Shown here: positions 3,928 through 64,000 of the stretch, piece by piece | How the letters are laid out: every line of letters starts with the position of its first letter | Position numbering within the stretch: the first letter of the stretch is position 1 | Assembly (NCBI GenBank): GCA_964291625.2 | Contig: OZ220089.1 | Coordinates: 2,304,001-2,368,000 of the forward strand | Direction of reading: 5' to 3' | Source: Candidatus Latescibacterota bacterium | GTDB lineage: Bacteria; Latescibacterota; UBA2968; UBA8231 | DNA: 64,000 nucleotides | Program-made: the position numbers and the translations under genes | Notes under the pieces: model-generated | What the model was told of the DNA's origin: nothing | The model's database searches: none | What the model saw: only the letters and a program-made list of their open reading frames with translations

Positions 3928-5322
3928 CTACCCCGCCACCTCCGTCCGGTTGAAGGCCCACAGGGCGAAGAAGAAGGCCAGGGCCGTCTCCAGCACCAGG
4001 ATCAGGATCGGCGCCAGGCCGGCGGCGAGGCTCTCACTCAGCGGCAGGGGGACCGCCTCGAAGCGCGGGATGTGGCGCGGGTCCAGCTTCTCCTGCGACA
4101 TGTAGCCCACCAGGAACAGCACGTGGGGCGAGTCCGGGTCGGCCGCGTCGCGGGCCCTCAGGAACTCGCGCAGGGTCCCGCGGTAGTCCCAGCCCTGGCG
4201 GGTGAAGCTGCGGAAGCGCTCGATGCCGTTGCGCAGCAGCGCCTCCAGGGAGTACTGGAAGGCGAACCCGGGGGAGAGCATGTTCACGCTCCGGGCCACC
4301 TCGAACTGCCGGATCTCCTGGTCCAGCGCCTCCAGGCGGATGCGGTCCTTGCCCTTCTCCATCTCCCGGATGCGCTGCGCGTAGCGCTTCTCCAGGGCGT
4401 AGTCGTCGACCCGGGCCAGCTCCGGGGGCCGCGGCTCGACCCCCTCCCGCTGCAGGGCCGTGCGCACCTCCCTCTCGTGGGTGTCGATCTGCTGCCAGAT
4501 CCCGCCCGGGGACTTGACCGCGGTCACCGCTGCCAGGTACGAGGTCTGCGGGATGACCACCATGAGCACGGTCCAGGCGGTGACCAGCAGCACCAGCGAC
4601 GAGGCCGAGCTGCGGGCCAGGGCGGAGATGCCCGTGGCCAGAAGCAGGAAGAAGGTGATGAAGACGGTGGTGCCCAGCAGGAAGAAGGCGTAGCTCAGCC
4701 ACACCCCGCCGTCCGGCTCGAGCACCCCTCCGAGGACGAGGATGAGCAGACTGAGCAGGCTGCCCGCCAAGGTGGCGGCCAGCAGGGTGGCCAGGTGGGC
4801 GCCGACCTTGGCCAGCAGGAAACGGCCGCGGGAGAGGGAGTTGGTCAGCACCAGCAACAGGGTGCCGTTCTCGCGCTCTCCGCAGACGGCGTTGTAGGCC
4901 AGGACGACGCACAGGAAGGAGAGCACGTAGCGAACGATGACGGCCCAGTCGACGACCTCGAAGCGGCGCATCCAGCGGTTGGTGGTGCGCGAGCTGGCGA
5001 ACCCGGGGATCTCGCCGGAACCCGGGTTGACGTACATGGCGTAGCGGAACCAGTCGGAGCCGGCCTCGGCCATGAACTCGGTGCCCACTTCGGCGCAGCG
5101 GATCTTGTAGCTGGTGGAGGCCGCATCCGCCGTGGTCTCCACGCGCCCGTAGCGCTCTTCGTTGAGGCGGGTGATGCGGGTCACCTCGTCGGCCAGGTTG
5201 CCCGTCTTCATCGTGTAGATGACGCCGTTGGCCCCGAAGAACAGCAGCAGGATGACCAGGCTGATCTGGAAGCGCAGCGACTGCAGGTTGTCGCGAAGTT
5301 GATGCAGGAAGATCGCTGCCAT
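3928..5322 (-). CDS. ABC-2 type transporter permease with large extracytoplasmic domain
   Basis: AYNAVCGERENGTL and SRGRFLLAK motifs; multiple TM helices. Confidence 0.85.
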   Translation of the reverse strand: MAAIFLHQLRDNLQSLRFQISLVILLLFFGANGVIYTMKTGNLADEVTRITRLNEERYGRVETTADAASTSYKIRCAEVGTEFMAEAGSDWFRYAMYVNPGSGEIPGFASSRTTNRWMRRFEVVDWAVIVRYVLSFLCVVLAYNAVCGERENGTLLLVLTNSLSRGRFLLAKVGAHLATLLAATLAGSLLSLLILVLGGVLEPDGGVWLSYAFFLLGTTVFITFFLLLATGISALARSSASSLVLLVTAWTVLMVVIPQTSYLAAVTAVKSPGGIWQQIDTHEREVRTALQREGVEPRPPELARVDDYALEKRYAQRIREMEKGKDRIRLEALDQEIRQFEVARSVNMLSPGFAFQYSLEALLRNGIERFRSFTRQGWDYRGTLREFLRARDAADPDSPHVLFLVGYMSQEKLDPRHIPRFEAVPLPLSESLAAGLAPILILVLETALAFFFALWAFNRTEVAG

Positions 5323-53453: not shown

Positions 53454-58055
<4,602 letters not shown>

Positions 58056-58075
58056 CGAGAGGGCGATTCCCGGAC

Positions 58076-59563
58076 ATGGGCAAACCGACCGGATTCATGG
58101 AGTTCGAGCGCGAGCTGCCGGCCGACCGCGACCCCGTCGAGCGCCTGCGGGACTTCGACGAGTTCCACCGGCACCTGAGCGACGAGCGGGTCCGCGACCA
58201 GGGGGCCCGGTGCATGGACTGCGGGATCCCCTTCTGCCACACCGGGACGACCCTGCCCGAGGACTCGCCCTTCGCCTCGGGCTGTCCCATCAACAACCTG
58301 ATCCCCGAGTGGAACGACCTCGTCTACCGCGGCATGTGGCAGGAGGCGCTCGAGCGCCTGCACAAGACCAACAACTTCCCCGAGTTCACCGGGCGAGTCT
58401 GCCCGGCCCCGTGCGAGGGCTCGTGCGTGCTGGGCATCAACGAGCCGGCGGTGACGATCAAGAACATCGAGGTCTCCATCATCGACAAGGCCTGGGGCGA
58501 GGGCTGGGTCGTCCCGGAACCGCCGGAGCGGCGCACGGGCAAGCGGGTGGCCGTCGTCGGCTCCGGTCCCGCGGGCCTCTGCTGCGCCATGCAGCTGAAC
58601 CGCGCCGGCCACCGGGTCACCGTGTACGAGCGTTCCGACCGGGCCGGCGGGCTGCTGATGTACGGCATCCCCAACATGAAGCTGGACAAGCGCCTCGTGC
58701 AGCGGCGGATCGACCAGATGGCGGCCGAGGGCGTCACCTTCGTGACCAGCACCGAGGTCGGCGTCGACATCGAGGCGCAGCAACTCGTTGAGGACTTCGA
58801 CGCCGTGGTGCTGTGCACCGGGGCCCTGAAGCCGCGCGACCTCGACGTGCCGGGCCGCCAGCTCGAGGGCGTCCACCAGGCCCTGGACTTCCTCCACGTC
58901 AACACCAAGTCGCTGCTCGACTCGGGGCTCGCCGACGGCGAGTACATCTCGGCGAAGGACAGGAACGTCATCGTCCTGGGGGGCGGGGACACCGGCACCG
59001 ACTGCGTCGGCACCTCCCTGCGCCACGGCTGCAGGAGCCTCTTCCAGTTCGACATCATCCCGGCGCCGCCGGACGAGCGCACCGCCGGCAACCCCTGGCC
59101 GGAGTGGCCGAAGGTCTACAACCTCGACTACGGCCAGGAAGAGGCCGCCGCCCTCTTCGGCGACGACCCCCGCAAGTACCTGCTGAGCACCGTGGAGCTC
59201 CTCGACGACGGCGGCGGCCGCCTCCGCGGCCTGGTGACCCGCGACGTGGAGTGGGTGCCCGATGGCGGCCGCCCCTTCCGCGAGGTGCCCGGCACCGAGA
59301 AGGAGTGGCCGGCGGAGTTGGTGCTGCTCTCCATGGGCTGGCTGGGCCCGCAGGACACCCTGCCCGACGCCCTGGCCCTGGAGCGGGACCCGCGCTCGAA
59401 CGTCAAGGCCGAGGAGGGCCGGTACGCCACCAGCGTCCCCGGCGTCTTCGCCGCCGGCGACGTGCGCCGCGGCATGAGCCTGGTGGTCTGGGCCTTCAAG
59501 GAGGGCCGGGAGGCCGCCCGCGAGTGCGACCGCTACCTGATGGGCACCACCAGCCTGCCCTGA
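58076..59563 (+). CDS. gltD: Glutamate synthase small subunit
   Basis: [41 protein letters not shown]. Confidence 0.97.
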
Positions 59564-59611: not shown

Positions 59612-60532
59612 TTGAAACGCCTCGGAAAGCTGGCACGGGTGGACCTTCGGGAAGTCTGGCCGAACGAAGCCGGTGACTTCACGCCATGGCTAGCAAGGGA
59701 GGAGAACCTCGAGTCCCTCGGTGATGCCCTTGGGATGGAGATAGAACTCGAGGCCACCGAAAAGAAGGCTGGTCCCTACTCCACAGATATCCTCTGCAAG
59801 AGCGAGGATGGGAACATCGTCATTGAGAACCAGCTTGAAACGACAAATCACGATCACTTGGGCAAACTCCTGACCTACGCTGCGCATTTCAACGCCCATA
59901 CCTTAGTGTGGGTCGCCAAGGAATTCACTGATCAGCACCGAGCGGCCATCGACTGGCTCAACGAGAACTCGACCCAGGGCACCCGATACTTCGGTCTCGA
60001 GATCGAAGTCTGGCGCATCGGGGAGTCAGAGCCCGCGCCCAAGTTCAACATTGTCGCTCGACCGAACGATTGGACCAGAGCCAGGAAGGCTCTAACCAAG
60101 GACCAGCAGCTTCGAGTAGAATTCTGGACCGGCTTCCGTGCCCACCTTGCTGCCAACGCAACGCGAGTAGAATCGACTTCCGATGCAAAGGGAGGCGGCC
60201 CTGTCCCGTGGATGAGACCCTGTCATGTGGCAGTTCCCGGCTTCAACCTCGTCGCGGCGACCTTTGTCAAGAAGAAAGAGATAAGGGCTACCCTGAGAAT
60301 CAGAAAGGGAGCCAAGACGGACGGTTACTTCTCGCAGCTTGAAGCCCAACGGGACCGCATCGAGCAGGAGATAGGCCGGGAACTGATTTGGGAGAAACCC
60401 ACCATCTATCTTCGACAGGACGGTGACCTTTACGATGAGGACGCTTGGTCCCAGCAGTATGCGTGGCTTCTCGATGGACTGGAAGACCTTCACCGGGGCT
60501 TTGAGAGCCCGGTTCGCGATCTTCCCACCTAG
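59612..60532 (+). CDS. DUF4268-domain protein with N-terminal PD-(D/E)xK-like (NucS-like) domain, lower GC
   Basis: LREVWPNEA.DFTPWL, DILC, IENQL..TNHDHLGKLLTYAA, FWT.F, IEQEIG..LIW. Confidence 0.8.
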   Translation: MKRLGKLARVDLREVWPNEAGDFTPWLAREENLESLGDALGMEIELEATEKKAGPYSTDILCKSEDGNIVIENQLETTNHDHLGKLLTYAAHFNAHTLVWVAKEFTDQHRAAIDWLNENSTQGTRYFGLEIEVWRIGESEPAPKFNIVARPNDWTRARKALTKDQQLRVEFWTGFRAHLAANATRVESTSDAKGGGPVPWMRPCHVAVPGFNLVAATFVKKKEIRATLRIRKGAKTDGYFSQLEAQRDRIEQEIGRELIWEKPTIYLRQDGDLYDEDAWSQQYAWLLDGLEDLHRGFESPVRDLPT

Positions 60533-60607
60533 CCGACAAACACATTGCAGCTAGGCCTCCTCACAGGGGCGCGCCTCTCGACAACCTACCCTTACTCCGC
60601 GCAAGAC

Positions 60608-61054
<447 letters not shown>

Positions 61055-61075
61055 GCCCGCCCTCCTCCCGAACCC

Positions 61076-61146
61076 CTGAACACGTTTAACACGCTGCTCC
61101 CGATCCCCTGTTGACACTGTGGGGACCTCCGGTTAACGTCGTTCAC
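61076..61146 (+). promoter_or_regulatory. Promoter and probable TetR operators of the efflux operon
   Basis: TTGACA(61111)-17 bp-TAACGT(61134); imperfect palindrome GTTAAC-N3-GTTCAC over the -10 and a related inverted copy at 61076-61090. Confidence 0.7.
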
Positions 61147-61148
61147 TC

Positions 61149-63221
61149 ATGGACCGGAGCGACATCCTCACGAGGGCCTGCGAGCTCTACCTGGAGGACG
61201 GCGTCGAAGCCGTCTCCATGCGCCGGTTGGCCCGCGATCTCGGGGTGACGGCCCCGGCCCTCTACCGCCACTACGCCAGCCGCGAGGAGATGCTCCTCGA
61301 CGTCGTCGCCGAAGCCTACCGGCGGCTGAGCGAGCGCCTCTACGGCGCCCTCTCGGGCCGCACCCCCGCCCAGCGGTTGTTCCTGGCGGGGCAGGCCTAC
61401 CTCGACTTCGCCCTCGATCAGCCGAAGTACTACGAGATGCTCTACACGCCAGCCCACACCCTCGGCGCCGAGGCCTTCCCGGAGCAGGTGACGGAGCAGG
61501 TCGCCAGCGTCGGCCGGTTCTTCAACGACCGCGTGCGCGAGTGCATCGACGCCGGCCTCTTCCAGCCCATCGATCCCGCCGACGTCTCCGGCACCCTGTG
61601 GGCCCACGCCCACGGCCTGATCTCCATCTACCTGCGCGGCTGCCTCGACATGGACGCCGAGGAGTTCCGCCGCCACTACCGGGCCTCGAGCCGGCGGGCG
61701 ATCACCGGCATGGCCACCCCCGCCTACGAGGTGGAGATGGACCGCGCCGTCGAGAGTCTGTCGCAGTCGACGGCCGCCCCCGCCTCCGGCGGCAGGGGCC
61801 GCCTGCGCGCCCGGGTCTCGTCCGCCCTGACCTGGCTCCTGGTGGGCTGGGGGGCGCCCGTTGCCGCGGAGGGCGCCTCCCCCGGCGGCGAGCTGCTGCT
61901 GGGCATCGACGAGGCCGTCGAGCTGGCCCTGGAGCGCAGCCGCGAGCTGGAGGAAGCCCGCCTGCTCCTGACCGAGGCCGAGGAGCAGAGCGCCGAGGCC
62001 TGGGGGGACGTCTGGCCGCGCGTCGACTTCTCGGCCAGCTACGTGCGCAACATCTCGCCGCCGGTCTCCTTCGTGCCGGCGAGGATCTTCAACCCCGGAG
62101 CCCCCCCCGGGGAGTTCATCTCCCTGGAGTTCGGCGCCGACAACAGCTGGCAGAGCGCCGTCACCCTGCGCCAGCCTCTCTTCGACCCGAGGGCCCTCGT
62201 CGGCCTCGGCGCCGCCGGTGAGTTCCTGCGGCTGCGCGCGGAGATGGTCCGCGGCCAGTCGCAGCAGGTGGCGACCCGGGTGCGCCTGCTCTGCTACGAC
62301 CTGCTGCTGCGGGGCGAGGAGGTGCGCCTCACCGAGCGGTCCCTCGACCGCCTGCGGCTGGCCCTGGAGGAGACGCGCGGCCGGGCCCGGGCGGGCCTGG
62401 CCTCCGACTACGACGTGCTGCGCCTCGAGGTCGAGCTGGCCAACCTCGAGCCGAGACTGCTCGAGGCCCGCAACGCCCGGGCCTCGGCGCGCCGCCGGCT
62501 GGGCCTGGAGCTGGCCCTCGACGAACCCGGCCGCCTGCGGTTGTCCGAGGCCACAACCCTCACGGCCGCGGAGTCGGCACCGGATCTGCCGGACGGGGAC
62601 CTCCTGCTGACGGCGCTGGCTCACCGCTCCGACGTGCGCCAGCTCGAGCAGACCGCCGAGCTGGGCCGGCGGCAGGTTCGGCTCGAGCAGGTGGAGTACC
62701 TGCCCAAGATCTCCCTCTTCGCCACCTGGGACGTGCAGGCGCAGCAGGACGGCCGACCGGACTTCTTCGGCAGCGCCCGCACCCGCGCCACCAGCAAGAT
62801 GGCCGGCCTCTCCGTGGAGCTGCCCCTGTTCAGCGGCCTGCAGCGGGACGCCCGCATCGACCAGAGGCAGGCCGCCCTGCGGCAGGTGCAGGTCCGGGCC
62901 CGGATGGCCCGCGACCAGGCGGCGGTCCAGATCCGGGATCTGGAGGAGGCCCTGGCCGAGGCCGACCGGCGCGAGGAAGGCCAGCGCCTCGCCGTGGCCC
63001 AGGCCCGGCGGGGGTGGGAGATCGCCAGCGCCCGCTTCCGCGAGGGAGTGGGAAGCCGGCTCGAGGTGACCGACGCCGAGGTCGCCCTGCGGCAGAGCGA
63101 ATTCAACATGGCCCGGGCGGCCCACGACCGGCTCGCCCGTCGGGCCCAGCTGGGCCTCGCCATCGGACGGGTGCCCCCCGTCGACGGCGAGGCCGCCATC
63201 GACCCGGAGGAGACGGAGTGA
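61149..63221 (+). CDS. TetR-family regulator fused in frame to a TolC-family outer-membrane efflux protein
   Basis: aa1-196: SMRRLARDLGVTAPALYRHY and LWAHAHGL; aa~241-690: EAVELAL, WPRVD, YLPKISL, LPLFSG, RFREGVGSRLEV.DAE; no stop codon between the two. Confidence 0.88.
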   Translation: MDRSDILTRACELYLEDGVEAVSMRRLARDLGVTAPALYRHYASREEMLLDVVAEAYRRLSERLYGALSGRTPAQRLFLAGQAYLDFALDQPKYYEMLYTPAHTLGAEAFPEQVTEQVASVGRFFNDRVRECIDAGLFQPIDPADVSGTLWAHAHGLISIYLRGCLDMDAEEFRRHYRASSRRAITGMATPAYEVEMDRAVESLSQSTAAPASGGRGRLRARVSSALTWLLVGWGAPVAAEGASPGGELLLGIDEAVELALERSRELEEARLLLTEAEEQSAEAWGDVWPRVDFSASYVRNISPPVSFVPARIFNPGAPPGEFISLEFGADNSWQSAVTLRQPLFDPRALVGLGAAGEFLRLRAEMVRGQSQQVATRVRLLCYDLLLRGEEVRLTERSLDRLRLALEETRGRARAGLASDYDVLRLEVELANLEPRLLEARNARASARRRLGLELALDEPGRLRLSEATTLTAAESAPDLPDGDLLLTALAHRSDVRQLEQTAELGRRQVRLEQVEYLPKISLFATWDVQAQQDGRPDFFGSARTRATSKMAGLSVELPLFSGLQRDARIDQRQAALRQVQVRARMARDQAAVQIRDLEEALAEADRREEGQRLAVAQARRGWEIASARFREGVGSRLEVTDAEVALRQSEFNMARAAHDRLARRAQLGLAIGRVPPVDGEAAIDPEETE

Positions 63222-64000
63222 GAGATCCCCTGCCCTGGGGGCGCCGAGTCCGCGGCGCCCTGTTGCCGGCCGCCGCCGCGGCCCTGCTCGCCCTCGGCGG
63301 CTGCGGAGAGGCGCCGGCCGCGGACGAGTCCGCCGCCATGGAGGACACCGACACCCGCCGCGTCATCAACGTCGAGGTCGAGACCCTGGCGCCGCGCCCC
63401 TTCACCGACATGATCCGCCTCACCGGCACGGTCAACGCCGACCGGGAGGTGACCGTGGCCGCCGAGGAGGGCGGGACCGTGGCCGCGATCCTGGCCGACA
63501 AGGGCGACGGGGTGCGCCGCGGGCAGGCCCTGGTCCGTCTCGACGACGAGCTGCTGCGCGCCCAGCGCGGCGAGGCCCAGGCCCAGGCGGCCCTGGCGGC
63601 CGACCGCTGGGCGCGCAAGAAGCAGCTCTACGAGGAGGAGGACATCGGCACCGAAGGGGAGTACGTCGAGGCCCGTCTCGCCGCCGAGCAGACCCGGGCC
63701 CGGCTGGAGCTGATCGAAGCGCGGCTCCGGCGCACCGTGGTGCGGGCGCCCTTCGACGGGCTCCTCGACCAGCGCCTCGTGGAGGTCGGCTCCGTCATCG
63801 CCCCTGGCCAGGCGGTGGCCCACATCCTCGACCTGGAGCCGCTCAAGGTGACCGCCGGCGTTCCCGAACGCTACGCGGCGGAGGTGAGCGCCGGCGACCC
63901 GGCGACGGTCGCCTTCGCCGATCTCGCGGACACCTGCGCGGCCGCGGTGACCTACGTGGGGGCCGCCATCGACGGCCGCCACCGCACCTTCCCCGTCGAG
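63218..64000 (+). CDS. RND efflux periplasmic adaptor (membrane fusion protein), 3' truncated
   Basis: GTG overlapping the upstream TGA; lipobox LGGC; GDGVRRGQAL and VRAPFDG lipoyl motifs. Confidence 0.9.
   Translation, partial: MRDPLPWGRRVRGALLPAAAAALLALGGCGEAPAADESAAMEDTDTRRVINVEVETLAPRPFTDMIRLTGTVNADREVTVAAEEGGTVAAILADKGDGVRRGQALVRLDDELLRAQRGEAQAQAALAADRWARKKQLYEEEDIGTEGEYVEARLAAEQTRARLELIEARLRRTVVRAPFDGLLDQRLVEVGSVIAPGQAVAHILDLEPLKVTAGVPERYAAEVSAGDPATVAFADLADTCAAAVTYVGAAIDGRHRTFPVE

Follow-up and report, generated by a model that had tools for sequence, protein, structure and literature searches.

How can a repressor that binds DNA in the cytoplasm and a channel that sits in the outer membrane be encoded as one uninterrupted protein? 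The question is raised by a locus close to the end of a 64,000-nucleotide stretch (here called the window) from a Candidatus Latescibacterota bacterium (GenBank assembly GCA_964291625.2, contig OZ220089.1, positions 2,304,001 to 2,368,000 of the forward strand), in which a TetR-family regulator and a TolC-family outer-membrane factor (OMF) occupy a single open reading frame (ORF) of 690 amino acids. One uncut chain cannot serve both as a DNA-binding repressor in the cytoplasm and as a channel in the outer membrane. That the two lie in one frame is real and unusual. The explanation that we rate, as a whole, at somewhat better than even is an inherited fusion in which TolC comes mainly from an internal start at Met197 and the read-through chain of 690 residues is the sole source of repressor. 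The relevant features, in window positions, are these:

61149..63221, plus strand: fused TetR-TolC ORF, from ATG 61149 to TGA 63219-63221, 690 amino acids, stop-free throughout
61149..61736, plus strand: TetR-family repressor domain, residues 1-196 (by Pfam), its own stop codon absent
61728..61739, plus strand: Shine-Dalgarno (SD)-like GAGGTGGAG and internal ATG (Met197), probable start of a TolC precursor (by conservation)
61737..61868, plus strand: linker and signal-peptide-like segment, residues 197-240 (by alignment to the signal peptides of split TolC proteins)
61794..61796, plus strand: codon 216 (AGG), approximate site of the lost overlap of tolC ATG and tetR TGA (by alignment)
61869..63221, plus strand: mature outer-membrane factor (TolC/OEP family), residues 241-690 and stop (by Pfam OEP)
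63218..64000, extending beyond the window end, plus strand: periplasmic adaptor (MFP) gene, its GTG start overlapping the TGA (by TIGR01730 and HlyD_D23)

The initial annotation, made from the sequence alone, had described this 690-residue frame as TetR (residues 1-196), linker, TolC and a translationally coupled MFP gene, and reading of the ORF, Pfam matches and the GTGA overlap bear it out in every part. TetR_N (PF00440) matches residues 6-51 with 43.9 bits against a cut-off of 24, TetR_C_33 (PF13305) residues 80-171 with 49.8 bits against 26.8, and OEP (PF02321) two stretches reaching to residue 673 with 166.7 bits against 22. The closest solved chains are the TetR regulators 3on2 and 2oi8 for the first part (E 2.8e-10 and weaker) and VceC (1yc9) for the second. 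The narrower family model TIGR01845 scores 85.8 bits on the TolC part, under its 210.05 cut-off, and TIGR01844 is also under its cut-off; a lipobox Cys, the criterion for a lipoprotein of the NodT/OprM kind, was looked for in residues 197-250 and none was found. Modeled at full length with AlphaFold2 (AF2), the chain gives a mediocre result (mean predicted local distance difference test score, pLDDT, 65.4; predicted template modeling score, pTM, 0.47), and fold searches were made without this model. It has TetR C-domain helices up to residue 181, with pLDDT of only 43-82 per 10-residue block, and builds the OEP part as long helical hairpins at pLDDT 85-95.

The frame is shared well beyond this assembly. 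Sixteen of 168 genomes of the phylum match at E <= 1e-45, and seven of the 168, from two genera, carry the uninterrupted fused ORF: G000, G002, G004, G006 and G007 from the window's genus, and G122 and G123 from the second. G121 keeps the junction intact, but its ORF is matched as two parts (residues 1-345 and 343-690). When 5.8 billion proteins were searched by word index, there were 475 matches; among the 120 listed, 16 have the TetR_N+TetR_C+OEP architecture, and at least 15 are fused protein clusters of 689-691 residues at 81%–97% identity. The 16th, P0017, has 640 residues and a C-terminus that is out of frame. The ORF is therefore beyond chance, given that the uninterrupted frame recurs in six further species genomes and 15 protein clusters. 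Contigs from two DNA runs of other studies cross the junction without a gap (X2, 61514-62049; X4, 61691-62052), as does a contig from an RNA library (X21 record 17, 61104-61808, 0 gaps), which may be DNA carry-over; these runs were compared as contigs, from which strand, transcript ends and expression cannot be read and in which uncovered bins carry no meaning. Runs containing this stretch carry sponge metagenome labels. The names attached by their sources to TolC relatives at 50% identity, like the ESM Atlas, indicate Gemmatimonadota. In an alignment of the linker, indels among the fused members are whole codons throughout. An assembly error in the window ORF is thus refuted. Four further genomes (G015, G018, G021 and G026), with open frames of 683-708 residues at their TolC matches, were considered as extra fusions and rejected: these are stop-poor frames in GC-rich DNA, with TetR separate or in another frame.

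Both halves are under purifying selection, TetR strongly so. In all ten pairs from five genomes, the ratio of nonsynonymous to synonymous substitution (dN/dS) is 0.10-0.20 for TetR residues 1-187 and 0.16-0.42 for TolC residues 256-690, and that of the linker (197-240) runs from 0.12 to 0.83. TetR is the better conserved half, with 90%–99% identity against 81%–97% over the whole protein. The fused state is fixed in a clade of two genera. Since TetR is functional on this evidence and has no stop, every TetR chain should continue into TolC; and since a chain with both halves under selection has been kept, there should be either an internal translation start or cleavage at an internal signal peptide.

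The evidence for an internal start is centered on ATG 61737. Met is found at column 197 in all 18 aligned proteins that cover it, and the ATG is kept in all eight genome DNAs. The pattern upstream is GAG-GNN-GAG, with GAGGTGGAG occupying 61728-61736; GAGG stands at -9 to -6 in 7/8 DNAs, and in 8/8 the 9 nt before the ATG contain one SD 4-mer or more. The 3' end of the 16S rRNA (...CACCTCCTTTCT) carries the anti-SD CCTCC. Apart from ATG 61737, the interval from TetR domain to hydrophobic segment has no in-frame ATG, GTG or TTG. Across this genome, 42% of 362 starts coupled by ATGA or GTGA have an SD 4-mer ahead of them, versus 13.5% of 7973 internal ATGs; for a 5-mer the shares are 26% versus 5.4%, a 3-5-fold enrichment of SD motifs at genuine coupled starts. 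Met197 is favored as the TolC start because it is conserved together with its SD and is the sole in-frame start before the hydrophobic segment. RNA folding over 61697-61786 found nothing specific at the start (z = -1.0).

Translation from Met197 would give the segment 197-240 an N-terminal position, which it has in no other way. The linker runs from M197 through ...GGRGRLRARVSSALTWLLVGWGAPVAA to the predicted cut before E241 (in full, M197-DRAVESLSQSTAAPASGGRGRLRARVSSALTWLLVGWGAPVAA-E241) and comprises a long charged n-region (+5/-2), an h-region (ALTWLLVGWG) and APVAA, with cleavage predicted after A240. It aligns to the signal peptides at the N-termini of TolC relatives that have a gene of their own, and basic residues, h-region and small-x-small site are retained in 17/17 fused rows. 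The AF2 model gives residues 206-246 a pLDDT under 50 and builds one short helix among them, at 223-231. Export by the twin-arginine translocation (Tat) system was considered and set aside, since GRGRLRARV, read by eye, has no twin-arginine motif. Mature OMFs have their N-terminus close to the outer membrane, and an uncut chain spanning both membranes is ruled out on topology.

A number of observations weigh against this interpretation. By chance, 5.4% of internal ATGs have a 5-mer SD; the 12-nt stretch around the start doubles as code for a conserved peptide (YE.EM[DG]RA); and in codons 188-196, where each pair has 0-2 synonymous differences, constraint on synonymous sites is not visibly stronger than elsewhere in tetR, the sites just upstream of Met197 being too few for a constraint test. 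The SD spacing is short, with GAGG ending 5 nt before the ATG. Met197 is not exclusive to the fused clade: of five split relatives compared, G014 shares the Met in this column of the alignment. The putative signal peptide itself is marginal by its composition: the best 12-residue Kyte-Doolittle mean is 1.24-2.26 in the 17 fused rows versus 2.29-3.03 in five split relatives, and the n-region ahead of the most hydrophobic 12-mer is unusually long, 24-33 residues versus 5-10. Finally, three clusters at 89%–92% identity (P0269, P0270 and P0157) frameshift inside the linker, which if real would leave the strains concerned with neither route to TolC. P0269 (226 residues) comes from a 796-kb contig, and its tail is the exact +1 reading of a G006-type linker; P0270 has 313 residues. 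The first 55 residues of P0269 match P0004, a cluster of 22 intact sequences against two in P0269, and this match and the cluster sizes suggest an assembly indel. On balance TolC is probably made from Met197, with moderate support that comes from conservation of the 12-nt stretch.

Frame breaks in the fused clade also have a distribution of their own: three fall in the 45-codon linker (P0269, P0270 and P0157) and two within TolC (P0017, and G121 at locus L020). Assembly indels in GC-rich runs may account for them, or else true re-splitting and decay.

Relatives with separate genes indicate how the fusion may have arisen. Separate tetR and tolC are found in G001, G005, G008 and G009, of the same genus, and in G014 and G167, of another, and in all six the tetR TGA overlaps the tolC ATG as ATGA. 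The split TetR tails end ...ASG*, and the fused clade reads ...ASGG(R/K)G-RLR at the equivalent place, the old tolC start position being now AGG or AAG (codon 216, 61794-61796). The alignment of these tails therefore points to an indel in the overlap that brought the frames into register, the exact indel at codon ~216 being past reconstruction. A quick maximum-likelihood tree, computed from the TolC part of 58 rows, joins the 20 fused rows with P0016 and P0018 in one group with a Shimodaira-Hasegawa-like approximate likelihood ratio test (SH-aLRT) value of 100, where P0016 (500 residues, 2-kb contig) and P0018 (435 residues, from the V256 equivalent) are assigned neither to the fused nor to the split form. 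The sister of this group is P0019/P0020 (99), and the split genomes are placed elsewhere. A search with the TetR part limited to proteins of 379-1208 residues scored 2078 candidates and gave 17 matches, 16 of them the same fused proteins and one an unrelated TetR fusion. Taken together, the tree and this search argue for a single, clade-limited fusion event at this sequence range, a frame merger of a translationally coupled tetR-tolC pair.

These comparisons also bear on the options that the initial annotation had left. Of its two candidates for a trivial origin, an assembly error falls, the frame being present in 7/168 phylum genomes and the X2 and X4 contigs gap-free; a recent loss of a stop codon was roughly right in kind, as a stop was lost, and wrong in date, since the event was a frame merger at an ATGA overlap common to two genera. 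The pattern it had expected of an erroneous frame is half present: separate genes are indeed found in close relatives, the stop falling at the place that corresponds to ~61795, but there is no read error, the contigs being without gaps. Its proposed search for TetR_N+TetR_C+OEP in related genomes turned up the seven genomes of two genera, and its proposed linker alignment the whole-codon indels. The internal start at ATG 61737, which it had also offered, has become the best-supported route to TolC (ATG in 8/8 DNAs, Met in 18/18 proteins, SD 4-mer in 8/8).

The sister lineage (P0019, P0020, G155 at locus L021, and G019) may show what can follow. It has TetR fragments (approximately residues 74-95 and 150-188) in frame before TolC, with the helix-turn-helix (HTH) gone and residues 190-226 of the fused form deleted. 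P0020 begins at the Met188 equivalent (MAITWLLLAC...), and in G019 (L011, 1240-2475) the TolC frame departs from P0019 after residue 347, with a stop soon after. This lineage therefore indicates that the repressor can decay while TolC is kept and started inside former TetR sequence. The decay may have come after the merger, or by way of an independent deletion. What is left of the TetR C-domain seems to serve now as the n-region in a signal peptide of lipoprotein-like form (...LLLAC, then G).

The operon does not follow the genus labels. TolC proteins of split species in the window's own genus (g1) are only 57%–59% identical to that of the window, and the fused gene of genus g22 is 82%–84% identical. 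A tree at odds with the labels (g1 versus g22, g11 and g14) suggests replacement or transfer of the locus.

An account of the whole can then be given as follows. In the ancestor, tetR and tolC would have headed an efflux operon with the order tetR-tolC-mfp-rnd and been translationally coupled by an ATGA overlap, and an indel in the overlap would have put the frames in register with loss of both the tetR stop and the tolC start. TolC would now come mainly from translation begun at the conserved ATG (Met197) behind the SD-like GAGGNGGAG, as a separate precursor with a long 44-residue signal peptide cut after VAA (A240). Ribosomes that begin at the nearly leaderless tetR ATG could not stop, and we infer that they would make the 690-residue TetR-TolC chain. 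The TetR part of this chain would be the only repressor source, acting on a palindrome at its own promoter; the TolC part would either pass through Sec and be cut off by signal peptidase at this VAA site too, or be degraded. Degradation of an unexported TolC part is the dull alternative for the TetR-initiated chain. Even with an internal start, the cut polyprotein that the initial annotation had offered as a further option would remain necessary in some form because the stop-less TetR is under purifying selection.

Might all TolC come from the 690-residue chain, cut after VAA by signal peptidase? In such an obligate polyprotein TetR would fold in the cytoplasm, the signal segment would insert N-in/C-out and Sec would move TolC across, leaving TetR on a short membrane stub until the stub is removed or slips out; repressor and channel would be made 1:1, and release might depend on export. 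Strong selection on a TetR without a stop means that the TetR-TolC chain must be made, none of the 17 fused rows has lost the n-, h- or c-region or its small-x-small site, and the topology (cytoplasmic domain, signal-like segment, exported domain) is what signal peptidase requires. There are precedents for cleavage at an internal signal segment: HCV (hepatitis C virus) core-E1, reported to be cut by signal peptidase and then by signal peptide peptidase (SPP) (PMC5402940), and the anti-sigma factor RsiV (PMC4183432).

The architecture may also recur. In the ESM Atlas three clusters of 98, 170 and 54 members, whose commonest phyla are Gemmatimonadota, Elusimicrobiota and Verrucomicrobiota, have TetR_N and OEP in 98%–100% of members; at the level of the cluster listing, these are leads to a possible recurrence. 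No such cluster of other phyla appeared among the best 150 representatives of an exhaustive HMMER search (23057 matches at E <= 0.001) or in the length-restricted TetR search. The sole TetR+OEP representative among these 150 was P0002, of this clade. The same 150 included four single ORFs in which a full AcrB-type RND pump (ACR_tran) is followed by a C-terminal OEP: P0239 (1488 residues), P0252 (1529), P0258 (930) and P0217 (661). P0217, the only one of the four that was read, has a signal-like hydrophobic segment between pump and OEP. These may be another class of polyproteins, joining pump and channel.

An exported part of an obligate polyprotein would be expected to lack a start of its own, yet 8/8 DNAs have, directly after the TetR domain, an ATG preceded by an SD-like motif, conserved at the very point from which TolC could be made as a precursor on its own. 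The weak h-region (12-mer mean 1.24-2.26) would also be poorly suited to co-translational recognition behind a folded domain of 220 residues. We consider it unlikely that the polyprotein is the only source of TolC.

A less eventful history would have TolC made from the internal start only, with the read-through chain a tolerated accident: wasteful, its TolC part degraded in the cytoplasm, its TetR left or destroyed by that degradation, and the fusion without function of its own. The apparently nearly leaderless tetR, without an SD, is consistent with few such chains being made, and the sister lineage, which lost the TetR HTH and kept TolC, is consistent with TolC expression independent of TetR translation. 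Set against this, the fused frame persists across two genera with TetR at dN/dS 0.10-0.20, and a stop restoring the split would be a one-step change, yet none is found in the seven intact genomes. We regard an accident of this kind as rather improbable. More doubtful again is a working polyprotein in the full sense, with the repressor held at the inner membrane and freed after Sec export and TolC cleavage, its supply reporting export, and the same design arrived at independently in Elusimicrobiota and Verrucomicrobiota. That the frame is a sequencing or assembly indel or a decaying pseudogene, as the frameshifted variants in metagenome assemblies (P0269, P0270, P0157 and P0017, and G121 in two pieces) might suggest, is scarcely credible and refuted for the window, the frame being shared by seven species genomes and 15 protein clusters, with gap-free junction contigs from other runs, whole-codon linker indels and dN/dS far below 1 in both halves.

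The repressor domain stands at the head of an efflux operon, and upstream of tetR are two further features:

61111..61139, plus strand: promoter-like element, TTGACA (61111-61116), 17-nt spacer and TAACGT (61134-61139), called on conservation alone
61132..61146, plus strand: operator-like near-palindrome GTTAAC-GTC-GTTCAC, overlapping the -10 element, called on cross-species conservation

Only 9 nt separate the promoter-like element from the tetR ATG. Both the TTGACA-N17-TAAC(A/G)T layout and the near-palindrome GTTAAC-N3-GTT(A/C)AC at the promoter are kept in 13/13 fused and split loci examined, and a perfect GTTAAC-ATC-GTTAAC occupies the equivalent position in G009, G122, G123 and G121, the window having a mismatch in one arm. 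A consensus promoter and terminator scan of 60900-62100 returned 0 sites (the second hexamer of the promoter-like element matches the consensus at only 3/6), and an inverted-repeat search with a 6-nt seed over 61040-61160 returned nothing; because both scans came up empty, promoter and operator are read from cross-species conservation alone. The near-palindrome is a probable TetR binding site, and the arrangement suggests that tetR is autoregulated from a nearly leaderless mRNA. About 60 nt upstream, a second box, TGAACACGTTTAACA at 61077-61091, resembles the reverse complement of the operator-like GTTAACGTCGTTCAC (61132-61146). Similar boxes are present in split relatives, and this one may be a second candidate TetR site.

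On the other side of the fused ORF the adaptor gene starts at GTG 63218, inside the GTGA overlap with the TGA. The adaptor is of RND type (TIGR01730, 133.6 bits against a cut-off of 94.9; HlyD_D23 is also matched). Past the window, in locus L013, it ends at 4309, and an ACR_tran pump gene of 1131 residues begins at ATG 4306, again with an ATGA overlap.

The wider neighborhood is mixed. Two ORFs in 53454-59563, the first of 1533 residues, resemble by eye the large and small subunits of glutamate synthase, and a glutamate-synthase-like gene, likewise called by eye from translations, lies upstream of the split locus of G014. Between these genes and the efflux operon are a DUF4268 protein (59612-60532) and a small protein ending in SEC-C, a zinc-binding motif (60545-61054); the SEC-C gene stays upstream in fused loci. 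Downstream of the RND gene, outside the window, are a protein with an Xre/MbcA/ParS-type antitoxin domain (L013, 8831-9316) and one with a Fic/DOC domain (L013, 9846-11093), approximately 8.8-11.1 kb past window position 60001, which may form a toxin-antitoxin-like pair.

In a literature search without supplements we found no description of a TetR-OMF fusion, nor is there one in the available part of a review of tripartite pumps (PMC8277102); a fusion inside a TetR-controlled efflux operon is, as far as searched, previously undescribed. The locus is a natural test case of how bacteria handle a signal peptide in mid-protein, in a small sponge-associated group, and a dated, stepwise example of the path from an ATGA-coupled gene pair to a fusion and its aftermath, with decay of the repressor in one sister lineage. 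There is a warning for annotation too: database entries with TetR_N+OEP or ACR_tran+OEP may each conceal two products. If the polyprotein reading were true, repressor supply would directly report the success of channel export.

Among the repressors of RND efflux operons are local ones of the TetR/AcrR type, such as AcrR, TtgR and SmeT. The fused TetR resembles these in its N-terminal HTH and all-helical C-domain, in its place at the head of a tolC-mfp-rnd operon and in the 15-bp palindrome (here a putative operator) overlapping the promoter. It differs from them in running without a stop, in frame, into the outer-membrane factor, and in being co-directional with the pump genes and ancestrally coupled to them translationally. 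The channel half has the two OEP repeats and, in the AF2 model, the long helical hairpins of TolC, OprM and VceC; unlike theirs, its putative signal peptide lies inside the protein, after a cytoplasmic regulator of 196 residues. The nearest comparison is with the split pairs (G001, G005, G008, G009, G014 and G167), which have the same TetR subfamily (58%–66% identity) and a TolC 57%–61% identical, and which match the fused locus in how promoter and operator are laid out and in the adaptor gene that follows; they differ in their ATGA overlap and their shorter, more hydrophobic signal peptides.

A bacterial precursor cut at an internal signal peptide is known in the cytochrome b/c1 protein FbcH of Bradyrhizobium. 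The ACR_tran+OEP ORFs share with the present fusion a C-terminal OEP that follows a part ending in the cytoplasm; in contrast, their partner is an inner-membrane pump that is already at the translocon, and they are unrelated to this clade, at 25%–31% identity in OEP. HCV core-E1 (PMC5402940) has the same order of a cytoplasm-facing part, a signal-like segment and an exported part. So does FbcH. In both, cleavage has been shown and no internal start is known, whereas here a predicted cut is accompanied by a conserved internal start, and the part upstream is a soluble DNA-binding protein.

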